From contig CAVSBO010000016.1 of NCBI GenBank assembly GCA_963726195.1, positions 225,675 through 289,674 of the forward strand: DNA of 64,000 nucleotides, written 5' to 3'. The translations under genes and the position numbers were made by a program. Source of the stretch: Candidatus Thorarchaeota archaeon. GTDB taxonomy: Archaea > Asgardarchaeota > Thorarchaeia > Thorarchaeales > Thorarchaeaceae. Below are positions 32,672 through 59,577 of this stretch, one piece after another; position 1 is the stretch's first letter, and each line of letters opens with the position of its first letter. Below the pieces are notes generated by a model, which worked only from the letters and a program-made list of their open reading frames with translations, did not search any database and had not been told where the DNA came from.

Positions 32672-32721
32672 ATTCGAAAGACCGTAATGTGTGTAATACA
32701 ATACAAGATATGAAGAGAGCA

Positions 32722-42639: not shown

Positions 42640-43266
42640 TCATTCTCGTAACATTGCCTCCATCTGTTCAAAGCCCAAATCGAATGCGGCGGAGTTCATT
42701 TGTTGGAATTGTCGTGGTACGGTATCGTACAGAGATTGCAGGGCGGAATCCTTGGTTATTGGTACAAGATGCGTGCCGATTACTGCACCCAACATCACCA
42801 TGTTCAATGAATTGAGACTCCCGGCCTTCTCTGCAAGCTCCATCGCATCGAACTCAATCACGTCAGGAGTGAATTGCTTTATTGCATTCACAATAGTGTC
42901 GTGATCTGGATACGTTGCTTGGTCCATCGAGACAGCCACTGGCATCAAGGTATAGGAACTCATGATTATGTGACCGGTCGGGGCGACCAGATGGACTTCA
43001 CGCAGAGTCTCGATTGGTTCAAAACCTACGAGAAGCTGGGCGGTTCCTGAATCAATGATAGGACCCTTTGCATGTTCCCCTATTCTAATTGTGCAGAGAA
43101 CATGACCACCCCGTTGGGCCATGCCGTGTATCTCACCGACTCTAACATTATGGCCATCCAGCGTGGCTGCTTTTGCCAGCACCTCTGCAAGAGTTAGCAC
43201 ACCTTGGCCGCCTACCCCACTGACTGCCACATTCGTGACTTCCACTGTATTACGAACAATACGCAT
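42640..43266 (-). CDS. iorB: Indolepyruvate:ferredoxin oxidoreductase beta subunit
   Basis: GVGGQG, EIHGMAQRGG, NMVMLGA. Confidence 0.93.
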   Translation of the reverse strand: MRIVRNTVEVTNVAVSGVGGQGVLTLAEVLAKAATLDGHNVRVGEIHGMAQRGGHVLCTIRIGEHAKGPIIDSGTAQLLVGFEPIETLREVHLVAPTGHIIMSSYTLMPVAVSMDQATYPDHDTIVNAIKQFTPDVIEFDAMELAEKAGSLNSLNMVMLGAVIGTHLVPITKDSALQSLYDTVPRQFQQMNSAAFDLGFEQMEAMLRE

Positions 43267-43269
43267 CCT

Positions 43270-45158
43270 TCAATCCTCCCGGCCTATGGCACCTTGAGGA
43301 CAGACAGCCGCACAGGTACCACATTCGTTGCACGAAGTCTCATCAATCACGGCCTTGTTCGTGTCAGAATCAAAATACATGGCCGGACATGAAAGCCGAT
43401 GCAGACATCGTTTACAGGCGTTACACAGCTCTGGGTCGACGTGGTAGGGATGAGGTGGAGTTCCAGCTTGTTGCCTATCGATTGCTGCAAGGAGTGCGCA
43501 TGGTTCTCTGGACACCAACACGGCTGGTTGTTTGTTTTCTTTTGCCCATGTAACCATTTCTCGGATCTCTGACACAAGGGCGGCCATGGAACCAAACGGT
43601 TGTACCATTCTTACGTAGTTCACACCCAATCCCTTGCACACATCAACTATGTCTATAGGACTGACCTTCTCTTGCATCCCAGTGAGACCTGTGCCAGGAT
43701 GCGGCTGGTGCCCTGTCATCGCCGTGGTGCGGTTGTCGAGCACGACCACGCTGATTGGGTGCCTGTTGTACACCGCATCAACTATGCCCGGAAGACCTGA
43801 TGCGAAAAATGTGCTATCGCCAATTGTGGCCACGACGTCCTGACCAGTAACTCGTGCTATTCCACACGCAGTAGTGACAGAGGATCCCATGTCAAACAGT
43901 ATGTCGGCCGTCTCGAGAGGAGGAGCAATGCTTAGTGTATAGCAGCCTATGTCGGATGGGTAAATCGCCTTTCCCCTAGTGGCGACTCGAATTGCATAGT
44001 ATGTTGCTCTATGGGGACAGCCAGCGCACAGCAGTGGCGGTCGGGGCGGCAATGGGGGCAATTTCTCAGCTTTCGAGTCTATTTGTTCCCAGTTAATAGG
44101 TGTATTACGATTCAGAATCTTGGCCAATCCCTCTATCACAGTCCTAGGAGTGTATTCGTAGGTCCTAGGGAAGTAGCCTTGTTCCTTGCCCAGAATCGTG
44201 ACCGCTATGCTATCGAGCTGTGCGATTCCGCGCACTTGAGTTTCCAAGAAAGGTTCCAACTCTTCTAGTACTACTACCTTTGTGTGGTCTCGCAAGAAGT
44301 CAGAGATTTTCGTTGCGGCAGAGGGTGAGTCATTCCCAGTTTTAGTATCTCGGCTTCTAACCCGAGACTTGAGATTGCTTCAATGGCATAGTTGAAGGCC
44401 ACTCCACTGGTGATTAAGCCAAGCTCCCCTTCACCGGTTCTGTAATTCAGGGGTGTTTGCTCGGATATTCCCCTGGCCTTCTCGATTTGCTGTAGTAACC
44501 AAGGATGCCGTTTGTAGGCCACCGACGGAATGGGCACAAATCTGAATGGGTCTTTCATAAATTCGACAGTTGAGATGCGGTCTGGAATCGGGCCTAGCTC
44601 TACTGGGGCTCTTGAGTGACTGACACGAGTAGTTGTGCGATATAGCACAGGAAGCTCAACTTTCTCAGATATGTCAAAGGCTTCGATAAGCATGGATTTA
44701 GCTTCCGTGGGATCAGAAGGCTCAATCATTGGTGTGTTGGCCATCAGAGCGTAATAGCGCGAATCGTTCTCGTTTTGCGAGCTCCACATGCTTGGGTCGT
44801 CTGCGACTACTACTACCATGCCGCCGCGTACACCCACGTATGCAAGCGAAAGAAATGGGTCAGCTGCTACGTTTAATCCTGGACCTTTGCAGGCAATCAT
44901 TGATCTCACTCCAGCGACTGCGGCGGCTCCGGCAACCTCCATTGCGACCTTTTCGTTTGTGCTGAATTCGAAGTAGAAATTGGGAATGCGTGGCGCGATA
45001 GCTGTCAAGTTGTTCCCGATCTCACTACTCGGTGTGCCAGGGTATACTGCTACCAGACGTACGCCTGCTTCCAGCACGCCGCGAGCTATCGCCTCATTGC
45101 CAAGAAGGAGCATTCTCTTCCCGGGATTGTCTTCAAGCAGTTCGGTTGGTTTGGTCAA
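43270..45158 (-). CDS. iorA: Indolepyruvate:ferredoxin oxidoreductase alpha subunit, frameshift at about 44310
   Basis: LGNEAIARG, YPGTPSSEI, NEKVA; CAGCPHR, DIGCY, GDSTF, ferredoxin motifs. Confidence 0.93.
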
Positions 45159-45301
45159 TGTATCACGCGCCCCATTGAGGACTGGTCCCAGAACTGCTCG
45201 GGCAGAAGACTGTGTATCTGTTTTATGGTATAGAGAACAAAGATGCACAGGACGATTCAGACAAAAACACACATCCCCTGAACAACACACGGTCTCGTGA
45301 C

Positions 45302-45319
45302 TTAGAACACGTGTTCCAA
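45302..45319. repeat. Palindrome copy 1 TTAGAACACGTGTTCCAA
   Basis: 17/18 match to copy 2. Confidence 0.9.
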
Positions 45320-45370
45320 CACACCAGCTTGATGATCAGTGGGTTGGGTGTGCCCAGACGTTCTGGTTAC

Positions 45371-45532
45371 TCCCCTCTGCTTCCACTGGAACATATGGAA
45401 AGAGATGTTGTATCGCGATAATACTACTATTACAAAATAAAATAGATGACATTCCGCTTACGAAACGAGTATTTATACTTATCGTCAAATATCGAACCAA
45501 TAAAGGATTCGCTCCACTGGAAGCAACGGGGT
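45371..45532. promoter_or_regulatory. Putative replication origin: inverted ORBs flanking an AT-rich unwinding element
   Basis: GTTCCAGTGGAAGCAGAGGGGA (- strand, 45371-45392) and GCTCCACTGGAAGCAACGGGGT (+, 45511-45532); about 118 bp AT-rich spacer. Confidence 0.75.
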
Positions 45533-45539
45533 CTAGGGT

Positions 45540-45557
45540 TTGGAACACGTGTTCCAA
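45540..45557. repeat. Palindrome copy 2 TTGGAACACGTGTTCCAA (perfect)
   Basis: Perfect 18-bp palindrome. Confidence 0.95.
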
Positions 45558-45560
45558 GTC

Positions 45561-45851
45561 CTAGTTCAGTTCCTTATTGACTTCAAACTTCTTAGTGATC
45601 AGTATGTCTTGGTATGATTCGAACAGTGCTTCAAATGCGCCCCTGTGCTCTGGGGGTACCAGTATCGCAGATGCAGTCACAGCAGTAGACCCCGAGCACT
45701 GCTCCAGCAAGCCCGGTTTCCGTTTCTCCCTGTAGCCCCCTTTGGTCTTCCACGAATACGCGAATCCGTAGAGCTCCTTTGTGAAAGACACTCTCCTAGC
45801 GTTCGCCTCACGTGCCCGCTTGCAATCGTATAGGTACAGATAGTAAACCAA
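45561..45851 (-). CDS. Small basic protein, possible Cas2/VapD-like ferredoxin fold
   Basis: YLYLYD..RRVSFTKELYG..PGLL..SAILVP; TTG start assumed. Confidence 0.65.
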   Translation of the reverse strand: MVYYLYLYDCKRAREANARRVSFTKELYGFAYSWKTKGGYREKRKPGLLEQCSGSTAVTASAILVPPEHRGAFEALFESYQDILITKKFEVNKELN

Positions 45852-45866
45852 GGCGATCCCGCATTC

Positions 45867-45884
45867 TTGGAACACGTGTTCCTG
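45867..45884. repeat. Palindrome copy 3 TTGGAACACGTGTTCCTG
   Basis: 16/18 match to copy 2; 15 bp upstream of the small gene start. Confidence 0.9.
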
Positions 45885-46010
45885 TTTCAGTTCGAGTATT
45901 ACAAAACCGTGTATATGAAAAGCTTAAAGCGAGAGCGACTGGTCGCTAGCGGCATCCGGCGACACCAACTATGAGCATCAGTACATCGATTTACACGAGG
46001 AGGGATCTCC

Positions 46011-47324
46011 GTGAATGTAATCGGCCTGAGAAAAGAGGAGAAACCTTTCGAAACGCGCGTTCCGGTAATACCGGAGCATGTTGCCATGCTCAAGAGCAGA
46101 CATGACATCAAGTTCATAGTGGAACCGAGCGAACAACGCGCATTCAAAGCCGATGAGTACAAGAAAGTCAAGGCTCAGCTACTACCCCTGAAGGGCAGTT
46201 CCGCACAGGTTGTCTTAGGAATAAAAGAGATGCCTAACGATTTCTTCGAGCCTGGCAAGGCATATGTCTTCTTCAGTCATACCATAAAGGGACAGCCGCA
46301 CAACATGGCCATGCTGAGAAGCATCATAGCGGCAAAGGCGACGCTAATAGATTATGAGCGGATAGTAGACGACAAGGGCAAAAGGCTCATCTACTTTGGA
46401 AACTGGGCTGGAATGGCTGGCCTGTCCGACACACTCTATATCTTGGGACGCCGTCTCGAGCTCGAACACATAAGACCAAACCCTTTCAACCACATGAAGC
46501 GTGCACTCGAGTGCAAGGACCTTTCAGAGCTGAAGGATGCATTTACAGCACTAGCGAATCAAATAGTGATTGACGGGTTGCCAAAGCAACTATGTCCTTT
46601 TGTTGTCGGTTTCGCTGGATACGGGAACGTTTCTCGAGGAGCGCAAGAACTCTTCGACATACTTCCTCACGAATCGATCGAACCAGACGACCTAGCACAC
46701 ATAACGTCGCAACGCAACGTTCTGTACAAGTGCGTCTTCAAAGAGGAGCACATGGTCAAGCCAATCGACCCAACTGCCAACTTCGATCTTCAGGACTACT
46801 ACAATCATGGCAAAGCGAAGTACAAGGCTGTCTTTGATCGCTATATTCCGTACCTCACGGTGCTGTTGAATTGTATTTACTGGTCCGACAAGTATCCTCG
46901 CTTGGTGACAAAGGACTTTGTCAAGGTGCACTGGAAGGACAAGAACCGAAGGCTGCGTGTCATAGGTGACATTTCGTGCGACATCGAGGGTGCAATTGAA
47001 TTCACACTTGAAGCAACCACCCCTGCAGAACCAGCTTTCACTTACCTCGTCAAGCAAGACCGAATCGTTAACGGCATATCTGGAGAAGGACCGGTTGTGA
47101 TGGCAGTAGATAATCTGCCTTCTGAGCTCCCAAGAGAATCATCAACCTCATTCAGTGCCTCTCTTCTTGACTATATTCCGTCACTTGCAGACGCAGATTT
47201 CACCGTACGCTTCGACGAACTTGACCTACCCCGGGAACTAAAGGATGCAGTAATCGTATACCAAGGCAGTCTTACTAAGAACTATGAATACCTTCGAGAG
47301 CACACAGAACATACAGGAGAATAG
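46011..47324 (+). CDS. Lysine-ketoglutarate reductase-like protein (LKR half of AASS)
   Basis: GLRKE..ETRVP, GIKE, FFSHTIKGQ, LIDYE, GYGNVSRGA, DISCD, VDNLP. Confidence 0.88.
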   Translation: MNVIGLRKEEKPFETRVPVIPEHVAMLKSRHDIKFIVEPSEQRAFKADEYKKVKAQLLPLKGSSAQVVLGIKEMPNDFFEPGKAYVFFSHTIKGQPHNMAMLRSIIAAKATLIDYERIVDDKGKRLIYFGNWAGMAGLSDTLYILGRRLELEHIRPNPFNHMKRALECKDLSELKDAFTALANQIVIDGLPKQLCPFVVGFAGYGNVSRGAQELFDILPHESIEPDDLAHITSQRNVLYKCVFKEEHMVKPIDPTANFDLQDYYNHGKAKYKAVFDRYIPYLTVLLNCIYWSDKYPRLVTKDFVKVHWKDKNRRLRVIGDISCDIEGAIEFTLEATTPAEPAFTYLVKQDRIVNGISGEGPVVMAVDNLPSELPRESSTSFSASLLDYIPSLADADFTVRFDELDLPRELKDAVIVYQGSLTKNYEYLREHTEHTGE

Positions 47325-47327
47325 AAC

Positions 47328-48644
47328 ATGAAGACCGTACTCTGTCTGGGCGCAGGATTAGTGTCTCAACCCTACATCGAATACATATCAAAACATGGAT
47401 TCCATTTGGTCGTAGCCAGTAGAACCAAGAGCAAAATAGAGACCATGACTCAGGGTTTCAAGAACACTGAAGCTGTGTCGTTTGACATTAACACAGATGA
47501 CAAATTACTCGATAATCTAACTTCCAAGACTGACTTGGTCTGTTCCTTACTACCATTCATCTACCACGTCAAAGCTGCTAAAGTTGCGGTCAAGTATCAC
47601 AAGCCGTTCTGCACCACTTCCTACATATCTGACGAAATGAAAGCCTTAAACAAACAGGCGGTTGACGCGGGCATTCCTCTTCTAAACGAGTGCGGCGTTG
47701 ATCCAGGCATTGACCACATGAGCGCTATGAAAATCATAAACCACATTCATCAAAACCAAGGCAAGATAACGTCTTTCATCTCTTACACAGGAGGTCTCCC
47801 TGCACCTGATGCAAACAACAACCCGTTCGGTTACAAGGTCTCTTGGACCCCCAGAGGAGTCTTGTTGGCGGGCCGAAATGACGCTCATTTCGTCAGAGAT
47901 AAGAAAGAAGTGGTTATTCCCGGACCAGACCTCTTTGACAGCTACCAAATGACCGAAATACCTGGAGCAGGCAAGTTCGAGGTTTATCCAAATCGTGACA
48001 GCGTGTCATATATCGACATCTACGGTATTCCTGAAACGGAGACGATGCTAAGGGGCACTCTCAGGTATGCAGGCTGGTGTGCAACTCTTAAGAAAATCGC
48101 TGACTTGGGTCTCCTGAGTATCGAAGAACAGTCCTTCGGCAATCTGACTTACCGGCAGATGATGAGCAAGCTAGTTTCTTCCAAGGACTCTGACATTGTC
48201 AGAGCTGTTGCATCAGCCGTCAAGCTTTCTCCCACCGATCCTATAATAGTACGACTTCAGTGGTTAGGACTATTCTCAGATGAGAAAATCCCGTCTGGTA
48301 CTCCCACAAGACTGGATGCACTCTGCCATCTATTCGAAGAGAAAATGCAGTACGCTCCCGGGGAACGCGATATGATAGTAATGCACCACGAGATCACAGC
48401 CAAGTTTCCTAGCCGCAAGGAGAGAATCACATCAACACTTGTAGACTATGGCATACCTCATGGAGACAGTTCAATGTCCAGAACAGTCACATTGCCTGTC
48501 GCCATAGCCAGTCGGTTGATTCTGGAAGGAAAGATTCCGCTAACAGGCGTCCTAAGACCCACTTTGCCACAAATATACGAGCCGATCCTCAACGAACTTA
48601 CAACGCTAGGCATCAAATTCGTTGAAAAGACAACACGCCTTTGA
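47328..48644 (+). CDS. Saccharopine dehydrogenase (glutamate-forming)
   Basis: LGAGLVS, TTSY, NECGVDPGIDH, GGLPAP, YPNRDS, RGTLRY, SMSRTV. Confidence 0.92.
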   Translation: MKTVLCLGAGLVSQPYIEYISKHGFHLVVASRTKSKIETMTQGFKNTEAVSFDINTDDKLLDNLTSKTDLVCSLLPFIYHVKAAKVAVKYHKPFCTTSYISDEMKALNKQAVDAGIPLLNECGVDPGIDHMSAMKIINHIHQNQGKITSFISYTGGLPAPDANNNPFGYKVSWTPRGVLLAGRNDAHFVRDKKEVVIPGPDLFDSYQMTEIPGAGKFEVYPNRDSVSYIDIYGIPETETMLRGTLRYAGWCATLKKIADLGLLSIEEQSFGNLTYRQMMSKLVSSKDSDIVRAVASAVKLSPTDPIIVRLQWLGLFSDEKIPSGTPTRLDALCHLFEEKMQYAPGERDMIVMHHEITAKFPSRKERITSTLVDYGIPHGDSSMSRTVTLPVAIASRLILEGKIPLTGVLRPTLPQIYEPILNELTTLGIKFVEKTTRL

Positions 48645-48698
48645 GCTCAAGACATATGACCGTTTGGGATGTAACAACACACCCAAGGCTCGGGTCGT

Positions 48699-49334
48699 CT
48701 ATCCTCTGAGACGTATCTGTATCGCTTCCAGCACGGCTTCGGCGCGCCGCGATTCCTGCTGGACCTCTTCGAGTTCGGTCTTCAGACGATAGCTATAGCC
48801 TGAGCGGCTTCCGTATCTCTCGAGATGCCCATTGCCACTATTCCACATTCTTCCAAGGTAAGTACAAGCAGTGCTCTTAGGCAACTCTTCATTGAACGCA
48901 CTTTGGTAGATTTCTGCAACATCTACTGACGAGAACTTGCCGTGTTTGAAGGAAGCATATATGATAACACGCATCTTCTCGTAATTACTCAGGGACTCAA
49001 AATGCCAATCATCAGCATGGCTTGCGGTCTCCTCGACAGCAGAAGTGAAAGTGTAGCCAGTACTAGTCTCCAAAAAGACTCTGAACTTATCCAGCATTTC
49101 TTCTGACGTGCCCTTTAATTGAAGACTGGACTCCTCGCTCGTCGATTCATCCACTACTACGATCTTCAAATCAAACGGTGACTCAGTTAGCGCGAGGATC
49201 TTCTTGAAGCGAGCAAGGGCCTCATCAGGTTTGACATACTTGCACTGGAAAACCTCACGAAGTCCCGGGCCTGAACTGTACGTGAACTCGTACACATAGT
49301 TTGTTCTCGCTTCATCACCCAACGGTATCACCAA
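48699..49334 (-). CDS. Hypothetical protein with C-terminal winged-helix-like domain
   Basis: FSSVDVAEIYQ..STACTYLGRM..LERYG..YRL. Confidence 0.65.
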   Translation of the reverse strand: MVIPLGDEARTNYVYEFTYSSGPGLREVFQCKYVKPDEALARFKKILALTESPFDLKIVVVDESTSEESSLQLKGTSEEMLDKFRVFLETSTGYTFTSAVEETASHADDWHFESLSNYEKMRVIIYASFKHGKFSSVDVAEIYQSAFNEELPKSTACTYLGRMWNSGNGHLERYGSRSGYSYRLKTELEEVQQESRRAEAVLEAIQIRLRG

Positions 49335-49631
49335 ACTGGCTTGTCTAACAGACGGACATGTTCACAAATCGTTTCCTTTCGCGAGTAGATAAGTGTGAGT
49401 ATGTGAATTGCTAATACCATAGTAAGTAGAACATGATGCGCATTATCAGAACCGGCTACCGACAGGCTAGACCTAGCACCAGAATCAGGCATTAGATGCC
49501 CCCAGTTGTCTATCAAAGCACCGATATCAGCACAACGTTCTCAAATCGTCTGTCTTCCAACTTTTCCAACATTCACTGGCCGGATACTTCTGTGAATATC
49601 GATACAACATATGATAGGTGTTGTATCTGTT

Positions 49632-49652
49632 TTCCACTGGCAGCGGAGGGGT
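49632..49652 (+). promoter_or_regulatory. Isolated ORB-like box TTCCACTGGCAGCGGAGGGGT
   Basis: Close match to the two ORBs at 45.4-45.5 kb including the G-string; intergenic. Confidence 0.55.
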
Positions 49653-49798
49653 GGTCTTATTTACAGTATCGAACGCCTCTATGCTTGGCTCAAGGCCCAA
49701 ACGGTACGATATGCACCCTTATTCCCGGACACCATTCACAGAAAGCGCGCCATTCACAGGAATCTGTTGTGAATGTGTGTTATTGCCATAAACTCCAT

Positions 49799-50827
49799 TC
49801 ACGCCTGAGGTACCATGTAGTCGCCCGCTTGTTCGCCCAAGACCAGTTGAGTAAACTCCTCGCCTGTGTTGTCAACACGGACTCCTTCTGCTCTCCCTCT
49901 GGCTTCGATTATCATTCCCTGTTCTGCCTGCTCAGTGAATCTTCCTCGATAACTCATTATGACCCTCAGTCTGGAATCCTCCTCGCACTCGACGTGGTAC
50001 GTGCAAGGCGTGAAAATGCAGTCCTGATTATCGATAATCCTAGCTCGAACAGTTCGTATTCCTTCGTTGACAAATGATAGGTCTTCATGCGAGTACACCC
50101 TCTCCTCAGGCAATTTGACATTCCGTACAAAGAAGTCGTATGACTCAAATTCGCCTTGGAGTACTTTCTTCGCCTCGATGCTTCTCAGGGCTCGCCACCA
50201 TTCGTTCTCCTTTCCCCACCTGAATGCAACGTGCTTGTCAAGCTTCATTCCAGAATAGCGCTTGACTCCCGGCAGCTTTTCATGGCTTCGCAGAAGACTG
50301 AAGAGTCTCCGTGCAGACAGAGATCCGTACACTGCTAAATCAATGTCCGAGCTATTAATCGACAATCCCGCGAGCTGAGACCCTGTAACACCGATACTTG
50401 ACCAGTCTAATCCGGCCTTGTCCACAAACAGTCGCGCCAGTTTCACTGATGCTCTTTGCAGGTCGTCAAGATGCTTGCCCATGTCTCTCATCTGGTTCAA
50501 ACAAGTAACGGGATTCAGCACAAACGCAATGCGGCTCATTGGCACGCTTTGCAGAATTCGTCCATGCCTCTCATCGTACCATAGATATTCTGGATGCTTC
50601 TCGGCGAGATACATCTCGCGTTCCTGCAACGAGTAAATCTTCTTGTACCTAACACCGCTCGCCGAACATCGGTCGCCATTCTTGCTTGGCATATACCGAA
50701 GATACGCAATTACACGATCCGCAGGATGTGCCTCGCCCTTCACTTCGAATATGAAATCATCATCTGTGACAACGAAGTAGCCTTCGAGAAAATCGACGCC
50801 CGACTGCATACACTCACAATCCAACAC
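49799..50827 (-). CDS. Predicted nucleotidyltransferase (COG1665-like)
   Basis: FEVKG..HP..AYLRY, GVTGS..SDIDL, SYRGRF.EQA. Confidence 0.75.
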   Translation of the reverse strand: MLDCECMQSGVDFLEGYFVVTDDDFIFEVKGEAHPADRVIAYLRYMPSKNGDRCSASGVRYKKIYSLQEREMYLAEKHPEYLWYDERHGRILQSVPMSRIAFVLNPVTCLNQMRDMGKHLDDLQRASVKLARLFVDKAGLDWSSIGVTGSQLAGLSINSSDIDLAVYGSLSARRLFSLLRSHEKLPGVKRYSGMKLDKHVAFRWGKENEWWRALRSIEAKKVLQGEFESYDFFVRNVKLPEERVYSHEDLSFVNEGIRTVRARIIDNQDCIFTPCTYHVECEEDSRLRVIMSYRGRFTEQAEQGMIIEARGRAEGVRVDNTGEEFTQLVLGEQAGDYMVPQA

Positions 50828-55724: not shown

Positions 55725-58700
55725 TCATCTACGAACTCTGGTATCTCCAACACTCCTGCCTCGTCGTACGATGCTTTGAAGGTCTTCCATTTCGCATATC
55801 TCCAGGTTTGCTGGCTTGGCCGTATCATTATCCAGATACTCAGTCGCTGGTAAGATACAGACTGCCCGAGTGGCCTTGCAGGCTCTGCACACGACCTCGT
55901 TATCGAGCTGCAAAAGAATGTCGAGCTGATCTTGGCTAGGAAAGACAGCGTAAGACTTCCCTGCAGCACACAAGTCATAACATCCATGCCCCTTTGCAAT
56001 TGGCTCATTGAGCTTCAACAACTGAGATTCAAGGGCCCCCACAGCGGTCCTCTTCAATTCCCTGATAGCTGAGCGACCAACCACCCATAACCCCTCTTCC
56101 AAGCCCGAGAACACTCCGCTATTCTTCACCCTCACTGCAACCAGTCTACCATCTCCCAACAGCTCTGTCAAGGCATGCTTGCCTTCGGTCACACTCAATG
56201 GAACTGACCTTGCCTTTACTGATTGAAGAGCTGTCGTCTCAATGAATTCTAACAACGTATTCCATCTGGTCTTGCCATCTGACAAATCCACAAAGTCTTG
56301 TATGACACCAAACCACAAACGCAACTGCATCGAAGAAGAGGACTCAGGGCTATCCTCGACTGTTTCATTCTTCGACGTGATTTCCACTTCGTCTCTATCA
56401 GTCTCCGAAGCATCTGTCATTGATTCCAGCATCTCGTTCGACTTGCCTTTTTGAAGATGGGTCTCTATCATCTTGTCAAGCGAACTTGGGAATGCTGAAA
56501 TAACACTCACTGCATCATACTCGTCGTTCCTATCCATTAGCTCTCTCAACTTGGCAGCAGCAACGCTTCCTCTGACTATCACAAACAGCTCTGTCACACC
56601 ATTTCCCATTGTACTCATTTGGTATCTGATTCTTTCAAGGACGCCCTCTATCGATGATGCTTTCAGATGCTCAGGAACTATGAGAATCGCCTTGTCGTCG
56701 ACGATCATGACTTGACTGCCGAGGCGATCGCTTTGCTCTGAGCTTAGAGACCGCCCCAAACGTGCTGAAATATAACCTGCAATTGCTTCTCTTACGGCAT
56801 CACACCCTCTCCCGGGCAACGTGAAAAGAACCCCACCTTCGACAAGTGGCAGTGATTCGCGCTCGATGGACCCCAAAGACACAAGCTCCTGAATCAGTTC
56901 AGCTACGTCGTCGTTCCTGATACTTGGGTTGAAGGCAGTCAGCAGATTCTGCAATTCCTCCTTCGAAGCCACATCGTGCGAAGCAAGGAATGCCACCGCC
57001 CGATTCGCCAATTCGCCTAGGCCATCGAATACGGCCCCGCGATGCTCAACAGCGGTAGCACCGCCCACGGGCCTCTCCGTCTGCCCTGCAGGAGCATTGC
57101 TTACAATAGGTGATTGCGGCGACCGTGCATATGTCTGTTCAGATGCCGCATACTCTCGGTTCCAATCTAGGGTCTCTGCAAGCTCGTTCTGTTCAACCAA
57201 TTCCATTTGTGGCGTGCCTACGAAAGGTTCGGTTGCTAGCTCAAACGTATCGGTCTCGGGTGTCACGATTAGTGCCCTCCCCACCTTCAGCATCCTCAGA
57301 TAGCGCTCCTGCGCTTCATTGAGAGACATGAATCTGGCCCCAACAGAGCTATCATAAGGAAGTCTGAATGTGACTTTCGTGGCAGTGTTGGCCAGGATGT
57401 TCGACGAGATGTCAGGCCTAGTCGAAACAACAATCACCCCTTGACCAGTGGCTCTCTGTAGCATTACCATTGATTCGCCTGTCGTTACATCTGCCCGCTG
57501 ATTGCCTGGTATAGCTTTCAGGGACGAGATTGTTCGCCTCCTCAAGCACTACAACATGATTGAGCTGTGCTGTTATCCCACGTCTCATTGCGCTATCAAA
57601 GATACGTTTGGCAACAAGGTTGTACAGGAGACGGGCTGCGTCCATACCTCCTGTGCGAGCAACGTACCGAAGGTCGAATACCACACGTTTGCTCAGCAAA
57701 CTCGATATACTCATCGAATGCGGCCCACCCGCTAGTATTGAACCCAATGGCTCACGAATGAGCACTTCTAAACGGTTCAGCAATGCATCTCTCGTCATAG
57801 CACCAGTCCGGTCATTGTCAGCAAGCTCATTGATTTTTTCAATCAATATACGCACGGAGTTGCCACGATTCAACGTCTTTGCGGTCTCAAGAATTGCATC
57901 TCTCAGAAGCTTCTCCATGGCAGGTGAAAGCTCTGTTGAAGTGCCCATCTCCCTTAGAAGTTCCTTCAAGATGACAAACGTTGCGTGAGCCTGTTTTTCC
58001 CTTGTGTCTGCGTCAGGATCCAGGAGGTCCATTGCGAAAGAGGGGTCAAGCCCTGGACGAAAAATCATTACTTCCTGATTGCCTATATTTGCCAAATCGC
58101 TGTATTCAGAACCCTTCAAATCGAAAACCCACCAGGGTACCTCAGTCTTCATGCTTAGTTCGGCCATCAAGCGCTTGACAAGCGATGTCTTTCCGGTACC
58201 TGTGGAACCAATGACTGCAACATGCTCTCTCAACCATTCTTTCTTCAATCCTGCTTTGTTGAGTAGATGTCCTCCATAGACTGTCCATCCTATTTGCAAC
58301 TCGTTGTCCACAAGTTCTCTCGGAGGCACGTAGAAATCAGGAATCTGCGCGGCCGTGACAACGGGGATGCTCTGTACCGGTGTGTTGACAAAGGCCACCA
58401 ATCTCGATACATGTATTCTCTGCTGGCTTAGATGGCGTCTTGAAAGCAACCTACAAGCAGTTTTGCCGCTAATGTCTCTTTCCGCTATTGACATCTTGCC
58501 GTCTCCGCCCCAAACTGAGAAGGCAAGCCCCTTCAATCCCTCCTTAGCAGCTCTCAGTCCGGCTGAGTCATTGGCAGTAACCACGACATAGACGCTCGCC
58601 TCAAACCATCCCTCGTCGGCTTGCATCTGTTCGTACTGTCTCAACAAATCCTTCTTCACAACTTGGTCTTCAAGCGAATCCTCTCGCTTCTTCTCTCTTC

Positions 58701-59577
58701 CATGTATGGATTTCCACTCCGCTTCCAGCTTCCTCTTCTTCTTTCCCGCCCTCGCAGCTGAAAACACACACGTTAGAGCCAGTGAATAGCCCTGTTTCAG
58801 GCCCGTAGAAAGAAATGTGCCAATTTGGGATGTGGACTCCGAAGGTGCAACCCGAGGATTACCAGAGAGTACCATTGCTGACTTACACTGCATTCTTTCT
58901 TCTGCAATCGAATGTTCTGTCCCAACTATTTTGCCACTGAATGATAGCGCCGCTTTTTCTAACTCACCACCTTTCAGCTGCCGAAGTTCGACATTGTTAA
59001 GAGATGCCGACAGAATCGCTTCTGCTCTCGTTGCTTCTCTCCTCAGAGTATCTCCCATTTCCGTGATAGAGTGGCCCATTATGCTAATGAACACCCGAAG
59101 AAACGGTTCATCTCTGACCAGCCCAACTTCATATGCCATGGTGACGCGACTATCCATCCCTGCTCGAAGTGCCAGCAACATGGTCGTGTTGTACCTTGGC
59201 CTGTTACTTGCATCCTGCTCCACTGAGCCGGGGACCGACATCATCTCGAGGCAACAAGCCGCAATGGCCCGACTTCCGATGCGGACGACGTAGAACTCAT
59301 CTTCCAGCACGAAGGAAACATGCTCTGTTAGCATCTTCTTGAATGCAATGACGACACCACAACAGATTGGGAAAGCGCAAATGCATATTTCAACGACCGC
59401 TTTCGATGGAACAATGGGCTGCTTGATAATACCTGCAATAGGAAGAACATACACTGCGACGAAATAGAGCAGACAGAGCTGTATTCCGACAAGCTGTGCT
59501 ACTCTTGCCCGATGCCACCATATCGATTCTTCGCAGCCAGCCGAATACTCATCCTGATGTAATTCATGGGTCCTCAT
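55725..59577 (-). CDS. Large membrane-anchored HerA/VirB4-like ATPase, frameshift at about 57500
   Basis: 2 N-terminal TMs; HVAVIGSTGTGKT, VFDLKGSEY, LEEANN, QRATGQG..STRP..ILANT; long C-terminal extension. Confidence 0.8.

Follow-up and report, generated by a model that had tools for sequence, protein, structure and literature searches.

The window analysed here, 64 kb in length, is the final part of contig C16 (positions 225675–289674) in the 2.9-Mb, 19-contig assembly of a Thorarchaeota genome that we call G000. Two ORB elements in inverted orientation lie in it at window positions 45371..45392 (ORB_L, - strand) and 45511..45532 (ORB_R, + strand), which on contig coordinates is C16:271046-271205, and the contig terminates 18.5 kb to the right of them. 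ORB_L reads GTTCCAGTGGAAGCAGAGGGGA (the reverse complement of 45371-45392) and ORB_R reads GCTCCACTGGAAGCAACGGGGT (45511-45532). In ORB_L the dyad TTCCAGTGGAA points toward the spacer and the G-string points outward, and ORB_R is its mirror image, again with an outward G-string, so the arrangement described in the original prediction is indeed the one present. A third, solitary box (ORB3; 49629..49656, + strand, oriented as ORB_R) is situated 4.1 kb to the right of the pair and about 300 bp upstream of a gene that encodes a wHTH protein (below); the locus contains in all three boxes composed of the dyad TTCCAnTGGAA and a G-string.

These boxes stand out from the rest of the genome by two measures. 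The pattern TTCCANTGGAAGCANNGGGG, allowing up to three mismatches, is matched three times in the window, where 0.19 matches are expected, and none of 100 shuffles reached three; the matches are ORB_L (no mismatches), ORB_R (one mismatch) and the ORB3 site (49632-49651), and the first two are the only matches with zero or one mismatch in the whole 2.9-Mb genome. In addition, a weight matrix was built from 44 sites of relatives, with G000 omitted, and scored over about 5.8 million positions of G000. ORB_L is the best match to this matrix (25.9 bits), and ORB_R, a partner that is conserved in relatives, and ORB3 are third and fourth with 19.5 and 18.0 bits, respectively; the fifth match scores 16.2 bits. 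The second-ranking match (C14:6519-6541, - strand, locus L131; 23.2 bits) lies on another contig, within the 5' end of a 160-aa ORF without a Pfam family. A copy of the palindrome described below is found 120 bp from that match, with a short AT-rich stretch in between, and the C14 site may be a second Orc1 target.

The DNA between the paired boxes is an AT-rich spacer of 118 bp (45393..45510; 69–70% A+T, in agreement with the length and composition first reported for it), which we presume to be the duplex-unwinding element. It includes the most AT-rich 115-bp stretch of the 64-kb window, in which the runner-up has 64% A+T. An alignment of 29 origins shows that the middle of the spacer has conserved blocks, namely a AAAATGGAGATAAA-like block, GCTTC..AAAC, and a TATA-like block, TATTTATACTT / TATTTATACTTTT; these could represent either a promoter that fires through an ORB or an origin element similar to the ucm of Sulfolobus. 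The single-strand fold of the locus mirrors the inverted ORBs only, and an Rfam search of window positions 44800-50200 returned no match.

An 18-bp palindrome is located on the outer side of each paired box, with a left copy, TTAGAACACGTGTTCCAA, at 45302..45319 (51 bp outside ORB_L) and a right copy, TTGGAACACGTGTTCCAA, at 45540..45557 (7 bp outside ORB_R); a third copy (45867..45882) is just upstream of the small gene that adjoins the pair. The consensus is TT(A/G)GAACACGTGTTC(C/T)AA, also given as TT(A/G)GAACACGTGTTCCAA, and its 12-mer core is present six times in the 2.9 Mb, three of these copies being at the ORB locus and the remaining ones at C14:6658, C4:232775 and C15:117360. The copies that flank the ORBs are kept in nearly all loci of the family, and 27 of the 29 paired loci have a copy 317–524 bp to the right of ORB_R; no such palindrome was found in the 20–40 kb fetched around the origins of G157, a member of the sister family, and G064. 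The 11-mer CGATACAACAT is present only twice in 2.9 Mb, at 45405-45415 (- strand) by ORB_L and at 49600-49610 (+ strand) by ORB3, in each case 14–21 nt on the 5' side of the box, and the copy at ORB3 belongs to a perfect inverted repeat. TGTAWTACA boxes are found at window positions 32692, 40102 and 40716, 5–13 kb to the left of the putative origin. They are three of the six copies in the genome, and with only three sites in the window they do not form an array beside it.

The conserved left neighbour of the ORB pair is a 2-oxoacid:ferredoxin oxidoreductase (OFOR) operon (42640..45290, - strand; assigned by Pfam), which is transcribed away from the boxes. To the right there is a small gene of 104 aa immediately beside the pair (45561..45875, - strand; no Pfam match, family unassigned), whose homologues also lie beside the ORB pair in G009 (57% identity), a relative from another genus, and in G157 (34% identity). 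It is followed by the LKR and SDH gene pair of the saccharopine pathway (46011..48644, + strand; assigned by Pfam) and then by an origin-linked gene (48699..49334, - strand) for a 211-aa protein that is called a "hypothetical protein" in Thorarchaeota. This protein has an N-terminal alpha/beta domain and a C-terminal wHTH, is about 70% identical across Thorarchaeota, and gives an AlphaFold2 model with a pLDDT of 81. Pfam returned only sub-threshold matches to OTU and DUF5611, a sequence search of the PDB gave nothing significant, and Foldseek found generic wHTH structures (MarR, ArsR, PadR, the Cdt1 C-terminal domain and ORC2), none of them at E<=0.001. Families f6, f8, f12, f13, f15 and f2 have shorter homologues whose genes are situated about 1 kb or less from ORBs, usually opposite orc1-1. 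The genes near the site are housekeeping genes, and no integrase, rep or viral genes were found among them. Farther to the right, 10–14 kb from the putative origin, a HerA/DUF87-type ATPase (719 aa; window 55725-59577, - strand) overlaps a 606-aa protein without a Pfam family.

Strand composition and gene direction

Raw cumulative GC, AT and keto skews along C16 give no clean V. Since raw skews are dominated by gene orientation, orientation-corrected third-position skews were used instead; the skew at third codon positions was calculated gene by gene, the coding-strand mean was subtracted, and the values were referred to the + strand. The resulting GC3 skew is positive in eight of the nine genes checked to the left of the site (30–45 kb) and negative in 12 of the 13 genes to its right (45.5–64 kb), whatever their orientation, and its best change point on C16 (270456|272341) separates the genes on either side of the ORB pair. 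For the purine skew the 95% support interval, 213.6–273.7 kb, takes in the ORB pair (F=28.6, where permutations reached 18 at most). The best AT3 change point is at 235 kb (194–264 kb) and so narrowly misses the pair at 271.1 kb; the AT3 signal is about three times weaker than that of G009, and it is about zero over C16 203–290 kb. The original prediction had remarked by eye on a skew switch at this place with a GC sign opposite to the bacterial convention, and the GC3 values, positive on the left and negative on the right, are as it claimed. The other half of that remark, a change from T-rich to A-rich third positions, holds only for the genes that it named; on the large scale A exceeds T on the left and T exceeds A on the right. 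Because the GC sign is the one that would mark a terminus in bacteria, the reading of the site as an origin and not a terminus rests on the ORBs, the gene orientation and the AT sign.

The switch is sharper in two relatives from other genera, in both of which it coincides exactly with the ORB pair. The AT3 and purine change point of G009 is 376898|379268 (F=934 and 720, respectively) and its ORB pair is at 378019-378137; that of G036 is 262635|264976 (F=300 and 247, respectively) and its ORB pair is at 263736-263850. The skew in these two genomes is a sharp inverted V of about three times the strength seen in G000. The three genomes are not independent tests, as the relatives share synteny. 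Genes in all three are preferentially directed away from the ORB pair (54–57% overall, and 60–73% within 50 kb). The single-contig relative G059 was left out of the whole-genome skew analysis as a possible concatenated MAG, given its completeness of 77% and the distance of about 1 Mb between its orc1-1 and the origin.

A permutation-calibrated change-point test of the 11 contigs of G000 that are longer than 100 kb (2.79 Mb) found a significant sign change on C16 and C3 only. Cumulative AT3 is monotonic on every contig of this size except these two, with a broad maximum at 200–285 kb on C16 and a minimum at about 160 kb on C3. One origin and one terminus are expected to give exactly two polarity switches, as is found here, and the locus is very probably, to judge from these sequence features, the single origin of the chromosome. 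The switch at about 160 kb on C3 is of the opposite sign (F=61) and is likely to be the replication terminus. On the other contigs of G000 the T-rich strand, which is the strand leading away from the ORB pair, bears 53.4% of the genes (p=0.003). The leading strand thus appears to be T-rich at third positions, and near the origin also C-rich. Near the origin an excess of G over C is coupled with an excess of A over T on the same strand, whereas on the other contigs of G000 it is coupled with an excess of T over A.

Conservation of the locus and position of the initiator genes

Equivalent loci were collected from 30 genomes of the same family by way of the neighbouring LKR gene, a neighbour that is found in 51 of the 61 family genomes and in 15 of the 16 genera. 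In 29 of the 30 loci there is an ORB on the - strand, a spacer of 113–124 bp with 61–79% A+T and an ORB on the + strand, about 550 bp upstream of LKR; the sole exception is a truncated locus. The family ORB consensus, TTCCAGTGGAAATGAAGGGGT, is the canonical archaeal ORB. The boxes of genus g1, to which G000 belongs, are degenerate (15–26 bits, versus 22–43 bits in the other genera), and a search for relatives with a strict pattern of the G000 type found few of them, because relatives carry GAAAT or GAAAC in place of GAAGC; it was replaced by the LKR synteny search and the weight matrix. A box at about 4.1 kb, equivalent to ORB3, is also present in G009, G036 and G020. Colinearity with G009:C2 and G036:C43 extends for more than 200 kb, so that three genera share the region. 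More widely, the exact pattern TCCANTGGAAANNNNGGGGT is present in 72 of 151 sampled Asgard genomes, and the reversed control is present in none of the 151. The genome had been suspected to be that of an Asgard archaeon; homologues of the wHTH protein bear the name Candidatus Thorarchaeota, and this confirms the assignment of G000 to the Asgard (Thorarchaeota).

No orc1/cdc6 gene is present in the window, as had been noted at the outset, or on any other part of C16. The three TIGR02928 matches of G000 are an orc1-1 gene at C10:62584-63825 (418 bits), an orc1-2 gene at C10:105939-107076 (- strand; 244 bits, split over two frames) and a paralogue with a weak match on C3. The Orc1-1 protein is the cognate type of initiator for an oriC1 origin: it aligns over its full length, with about 50% identity and E=3e-101, with S. 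solfataricus Orc1-1 (2QBY_A) and A. pernix ORC1 (2V1U), the two proteins that have been crystallised on ORB DNA. It has intact Walker A and Walker B motifs, and a wing and recognition helix nearly identical to those of the two crystallised proteins; this full-length orthology fits the canonical sequence of the ORBs. The reading frame of orc1-2 is shifted near C10:106130, where the winged-helix domain begins, and three genomes of the same genus have an intact gene, so this frameshift, private to G000, may be an assembly error or a recent inactivation. Upstream of the two orc1 genes on C10 we found, in the way of ORBs, only a degenerate TTCCATCGGAAAC-like stretch before orc1-1, with no AT-rich element. 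A mini-ORB is present 66 bp upstream of orc1-1 in G009, and there is none at that place in G036.

The genes of G009:C2 between 360 and 446 kb follow the order of C16 up to its last gene and then that of C10 from about 114.3 kb downward, and by this synteny C16 runs on into C10 in reverse. The terminal 5.8 kb of C10 (C10:114330-120138), at the junction with the end of C16, have no counterpart in G009 or G036, and are for that reason perhaps an insertion at an assembly break. Measured across the junction, the distance from the ORB pair is no less than 31.6 kb for orc1-2 and no less than 75 kb for orc1-1. Similar distances are seen in relatives: orc1-2 lies 21–24 kb beyond LKR in eight of nine relatives whose LKR and orc1-2 share a contig (G004 is the exception, with orc1-2 about 10 kb off on the other side), and orc1-1 is 64 kb away in G009 and 58 kb away in G036, which share the layout on one contig. 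The initiator genes, as placed by this synteny, are non-adjacent and yet within the origin-proximal few percent of the chromosome. The original prediction of an "initiator-uncoupled origin" stands as regards the ORB-type origin, but "uncoupled" overstates the case, as orc1-2 and then orc1-1 follow beyond the end of the contig.

Comparison with other families indicates how this layout arose. Among 30 ORB loci taken from other Asgard families, 16 have an orc1-1 orthologue at 1.5 kb or less, and many also have a homologue of the 211-aa gene. The initiator gene is 1–2 kb from the ORB pair, and in that sense directly adjacent to it, in G157 (sister family f2) and G064 (family f6), and at least five further Asgard families have it no more than 1.5 kb from an ORB. 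In G064 the order is ORB pair, wHTH gene (leftward), ORB and orc1-1 (rightward). In G157 it is orc1-1, ORB, wHTH gene, small 104-aa gene, ORB pair and the OFOR alpha gene, which there too abuts the pair, all in 3.7 kb. The family of G000 has the same relative order as G157 (OFOR, ORB pair, small gene, wHTH gene, ORB3) and differs in two respects: LKR-SDH separates the small gene from the wHTH gene, and ORB3 and orc1-1 are tens of kb apart. Since LKR-SDH is absent from the equivalent position in G157 and G064, it looks to have been inserted into the origin module. In both of these genomes the box equivalent to ORB3 is directly upstream of orc1-1, and ORB3 is most simply read as the box that formerly stood in front of that gene. 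Because G157 and G064 retain orc1-1 beside the ORBs, the unlinked state is derived and family-specific; the displacement of the initiator gene is, on this comparison of gene orders, a late rearrangement at the level of the family.

Interpretation of the locus

We interpret this locus as the chromosomal replication origin, of the oriC1 type, of the G000 Thorarchaeota genome, and would put the probability of this reading at roughly 85%. An ORB-type origin was what had been predicted, and the conserved inverted ORB pair, the AT-rich element, the polarity switch and the intact Orc1-1 all bear the prediction out. If it functions like oriC1 of Sulfolobus, one ATP-bound Orc1-1 monomer would occupy each ORB with fixed polarity, and the two inverted monomers would recruit MCM onto the AT-rich spacer; bidirectional replication of a single-origin chromosome would then proceed to a terminus near C3:160 kb. 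By the same analogy Orc1-1 would act in trans, its gene being 75 kb or more from the origin. It is more speculative that ORB3, once the promoter-proximal site of orc1-1, is now an auxiliary or regulatory Orc1 site, and that the palindromes, the 104-aa gene and the wHTH gene are accessory origin factors.

A bolder version of the origin reading, which we regard as doubtful, is that the origin, once freed from orc1-1, gained a control layer of its own consisting of the palindromes, the 104-aa protein and the wHTH protein. The wHTH protein would then be a new Asgard origin factor, and the leading strand would be pyrimidine-rich, unlike that of bacteria. Under that version the wHTH protein, which accompanies ORBs in at least seven Asgard families, might be functionally comparable to UBP or WhiP/Cdt1; the palindromes are family-specific and occupy fixed positions outside both ORBs.

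Several features of the locus could be read in other ways. The degenerate ORBs of genus g1, the low AT3 amplitude that falls to about zero over the end of C16 and the frame-shifted orc1-2 would be in keeping with a vestigial or dormant origin, active in the ancestor and in other genera, in a genome that now starts replication elsewhere or by recombination; Haloferax and Thermococcus are known to be able to grow without origins (PMC5663688, PMC5333045). We nonetheless consider this improbable: the GC3 and purine change points take in the ORB pair, Orc1-1 is intact, the orc1-2 frameshift is private to G000 and may not be real, and monotonic polarity on all other contigs of more than 100 kb, with two switches only, implies that replication has long had a fixed start and a fixed end. 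A very improbable reading is that the boxes are not an origin at all, and are instead transcription-control sites for an Orc1-family regulator of the OFOR operon or the small gene. Such a role would accord with the conserved TATA-like block in the spacer, the location of the site in the promoter region of the OFOR operon, the ORB-like box and palindrome at an unrelated gene start on C14 and the mini-ORB of G009, and Orc1-2 is a regulator at DNA-damage promoters in Sulfolobales (PMC9738581). The DDRE sites of Orc1-2 are single boxes at DNA-damage-response promoters with no paired DUE, however, whereas the site described here is paired, has metabolic neighbours and coincides with a polarity switch. 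Moreover, the paired inverted geometry, the fixed spacing and the AT-rich core are those of oriC1 (PMC12141716), the polarity flips exactly at the pair in two relatives, and the same pair adjoins orc1-1 in other families; in any case regulation could coexist with origin function.

Even less probable, in our view, is that replication terminates at the site, or that it is an origin belonging to an integrated plasmid or virus. A change of GC3 from positive on the left to negative on the right is the signature of a bacterial terminus, and the extra origins of archaea are thought to come from captured extrachromosomal elements (PMC4010727). At a terminus genes and forks should converge, but the genes here diverge from the site, the ORBs and the AT-rich element are initiator sites, and the switch of opposite sign is found on C3, which leaves this as the only origin-like switch in the genome. 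A captured origin should have mobile-element borders and a patchy distribution; instead there are no integrase, rep or viral genes nearby, three genera share a colinear region of more than 200 kb, and 15 of 16 genera have the locus.

A chromosomal origin of the oriC1 type would be expected biology and is not a new kind of system, and displaced initiator genes have precedent. In a literature search we found no paper that describes an Asgard replication origin at the level of sequence or ORBs, and our analysis would narrow the origin down to a 160-bp element for an entire Thorarchaeota family. It suggests that Thorarchaeota, which are relatives of eukaryotes, still have a classic Orc1-1/ORB origin, one per chromosome and bidirectional, and it offers a dated example of an origin that lost its linkage to the initiator gene. 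Defined DNA and protein reagents for the study of ORB binding and MCM loading in vitro are provided by the ORB pair and its Orc1-1. The wHTH protein is flagged as a conserved neighbour of the origin across Asgard families, and it is in the accessory elements (the palindromes, the small gene and the wHTH gene) that novelty may lie.

Comparison with known systems

Compositional skew points to one origin and one terminus in other Asgard genomes as well, although no such pattern was observed in Heimdall-, Loki- or Odinarchaeia (PMC11291895). Those reports identify no ORB or DUE sequence, whereas in G000 the switch is tied to a defined ORB pair and is clearest in the orientation-corrected third-position AT and purine skews. 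The solitary ORB3, 4.1 kb from the pair, calls to mind oriC2 of Haloarcula hispanica, which has extra ORBs away from its ORB-DUE-ORB core that have been proposed to be modulators (PMC4010727); there the extra ORBs form a cluster with a partly tested negative role, and ORB3 is a single box.

The closest parallel is with oriC1 of Sulfolobus and Saccharolobus. The ORB3-DUE-ORB2 unit of Sulfolobus is about 130 bp long and depends in vivo on both of its ORBs; MCM is recruited to its spacer by Orc1-1-ATP (PMC12141716). Both it and the element described here have two inverted ORBs around an AT-rich element within about 130–160 bp and boxes of the canonical consensus, and the Orc1-1 of G000 is about 50% identical to the crystallised ORB-bound protein. 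The family of G000 also has a conserved motif in mid-spacer, where Sulfolobus has the essential ucm (PMC12141716), although the blocks in G000 are not the same sequence as the ucm (ATTATACAAAC). UBP is said to occur only in Sulfolobales and Desulfurococcales. Further differences are the distance of at least 75 kb to orc1-1, the 18-bp palindromes outside the ORBs and the apparently single origin of the G000 chromosome, where Sulfolobus has three. At the level of sequence, the G000 element has every feature of oriC1 except adjacency to the initiator gene.

Such adjacency is typical but not mechanistically required. Reviews treat it as typical (PMC4010727), and in Aeropyrum pernix neither cdc6 gene adjoins the predicted origins (PMC5333045). 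The oriC1 of A. pernix, which is of the ORB type, is bound by Cdc6-1 and is unlinked from the initiator gene, is thus a precedent for the arrangement in G000, although it belongs to a different phylum and to a chromosome with two origins, and we liken the two by description and not by sequence. Unlike the case of A. pernix, the unlinking in Thorarchaeota can be dated to one family, since the sister family keeps the initiator gene beside its ORBs.
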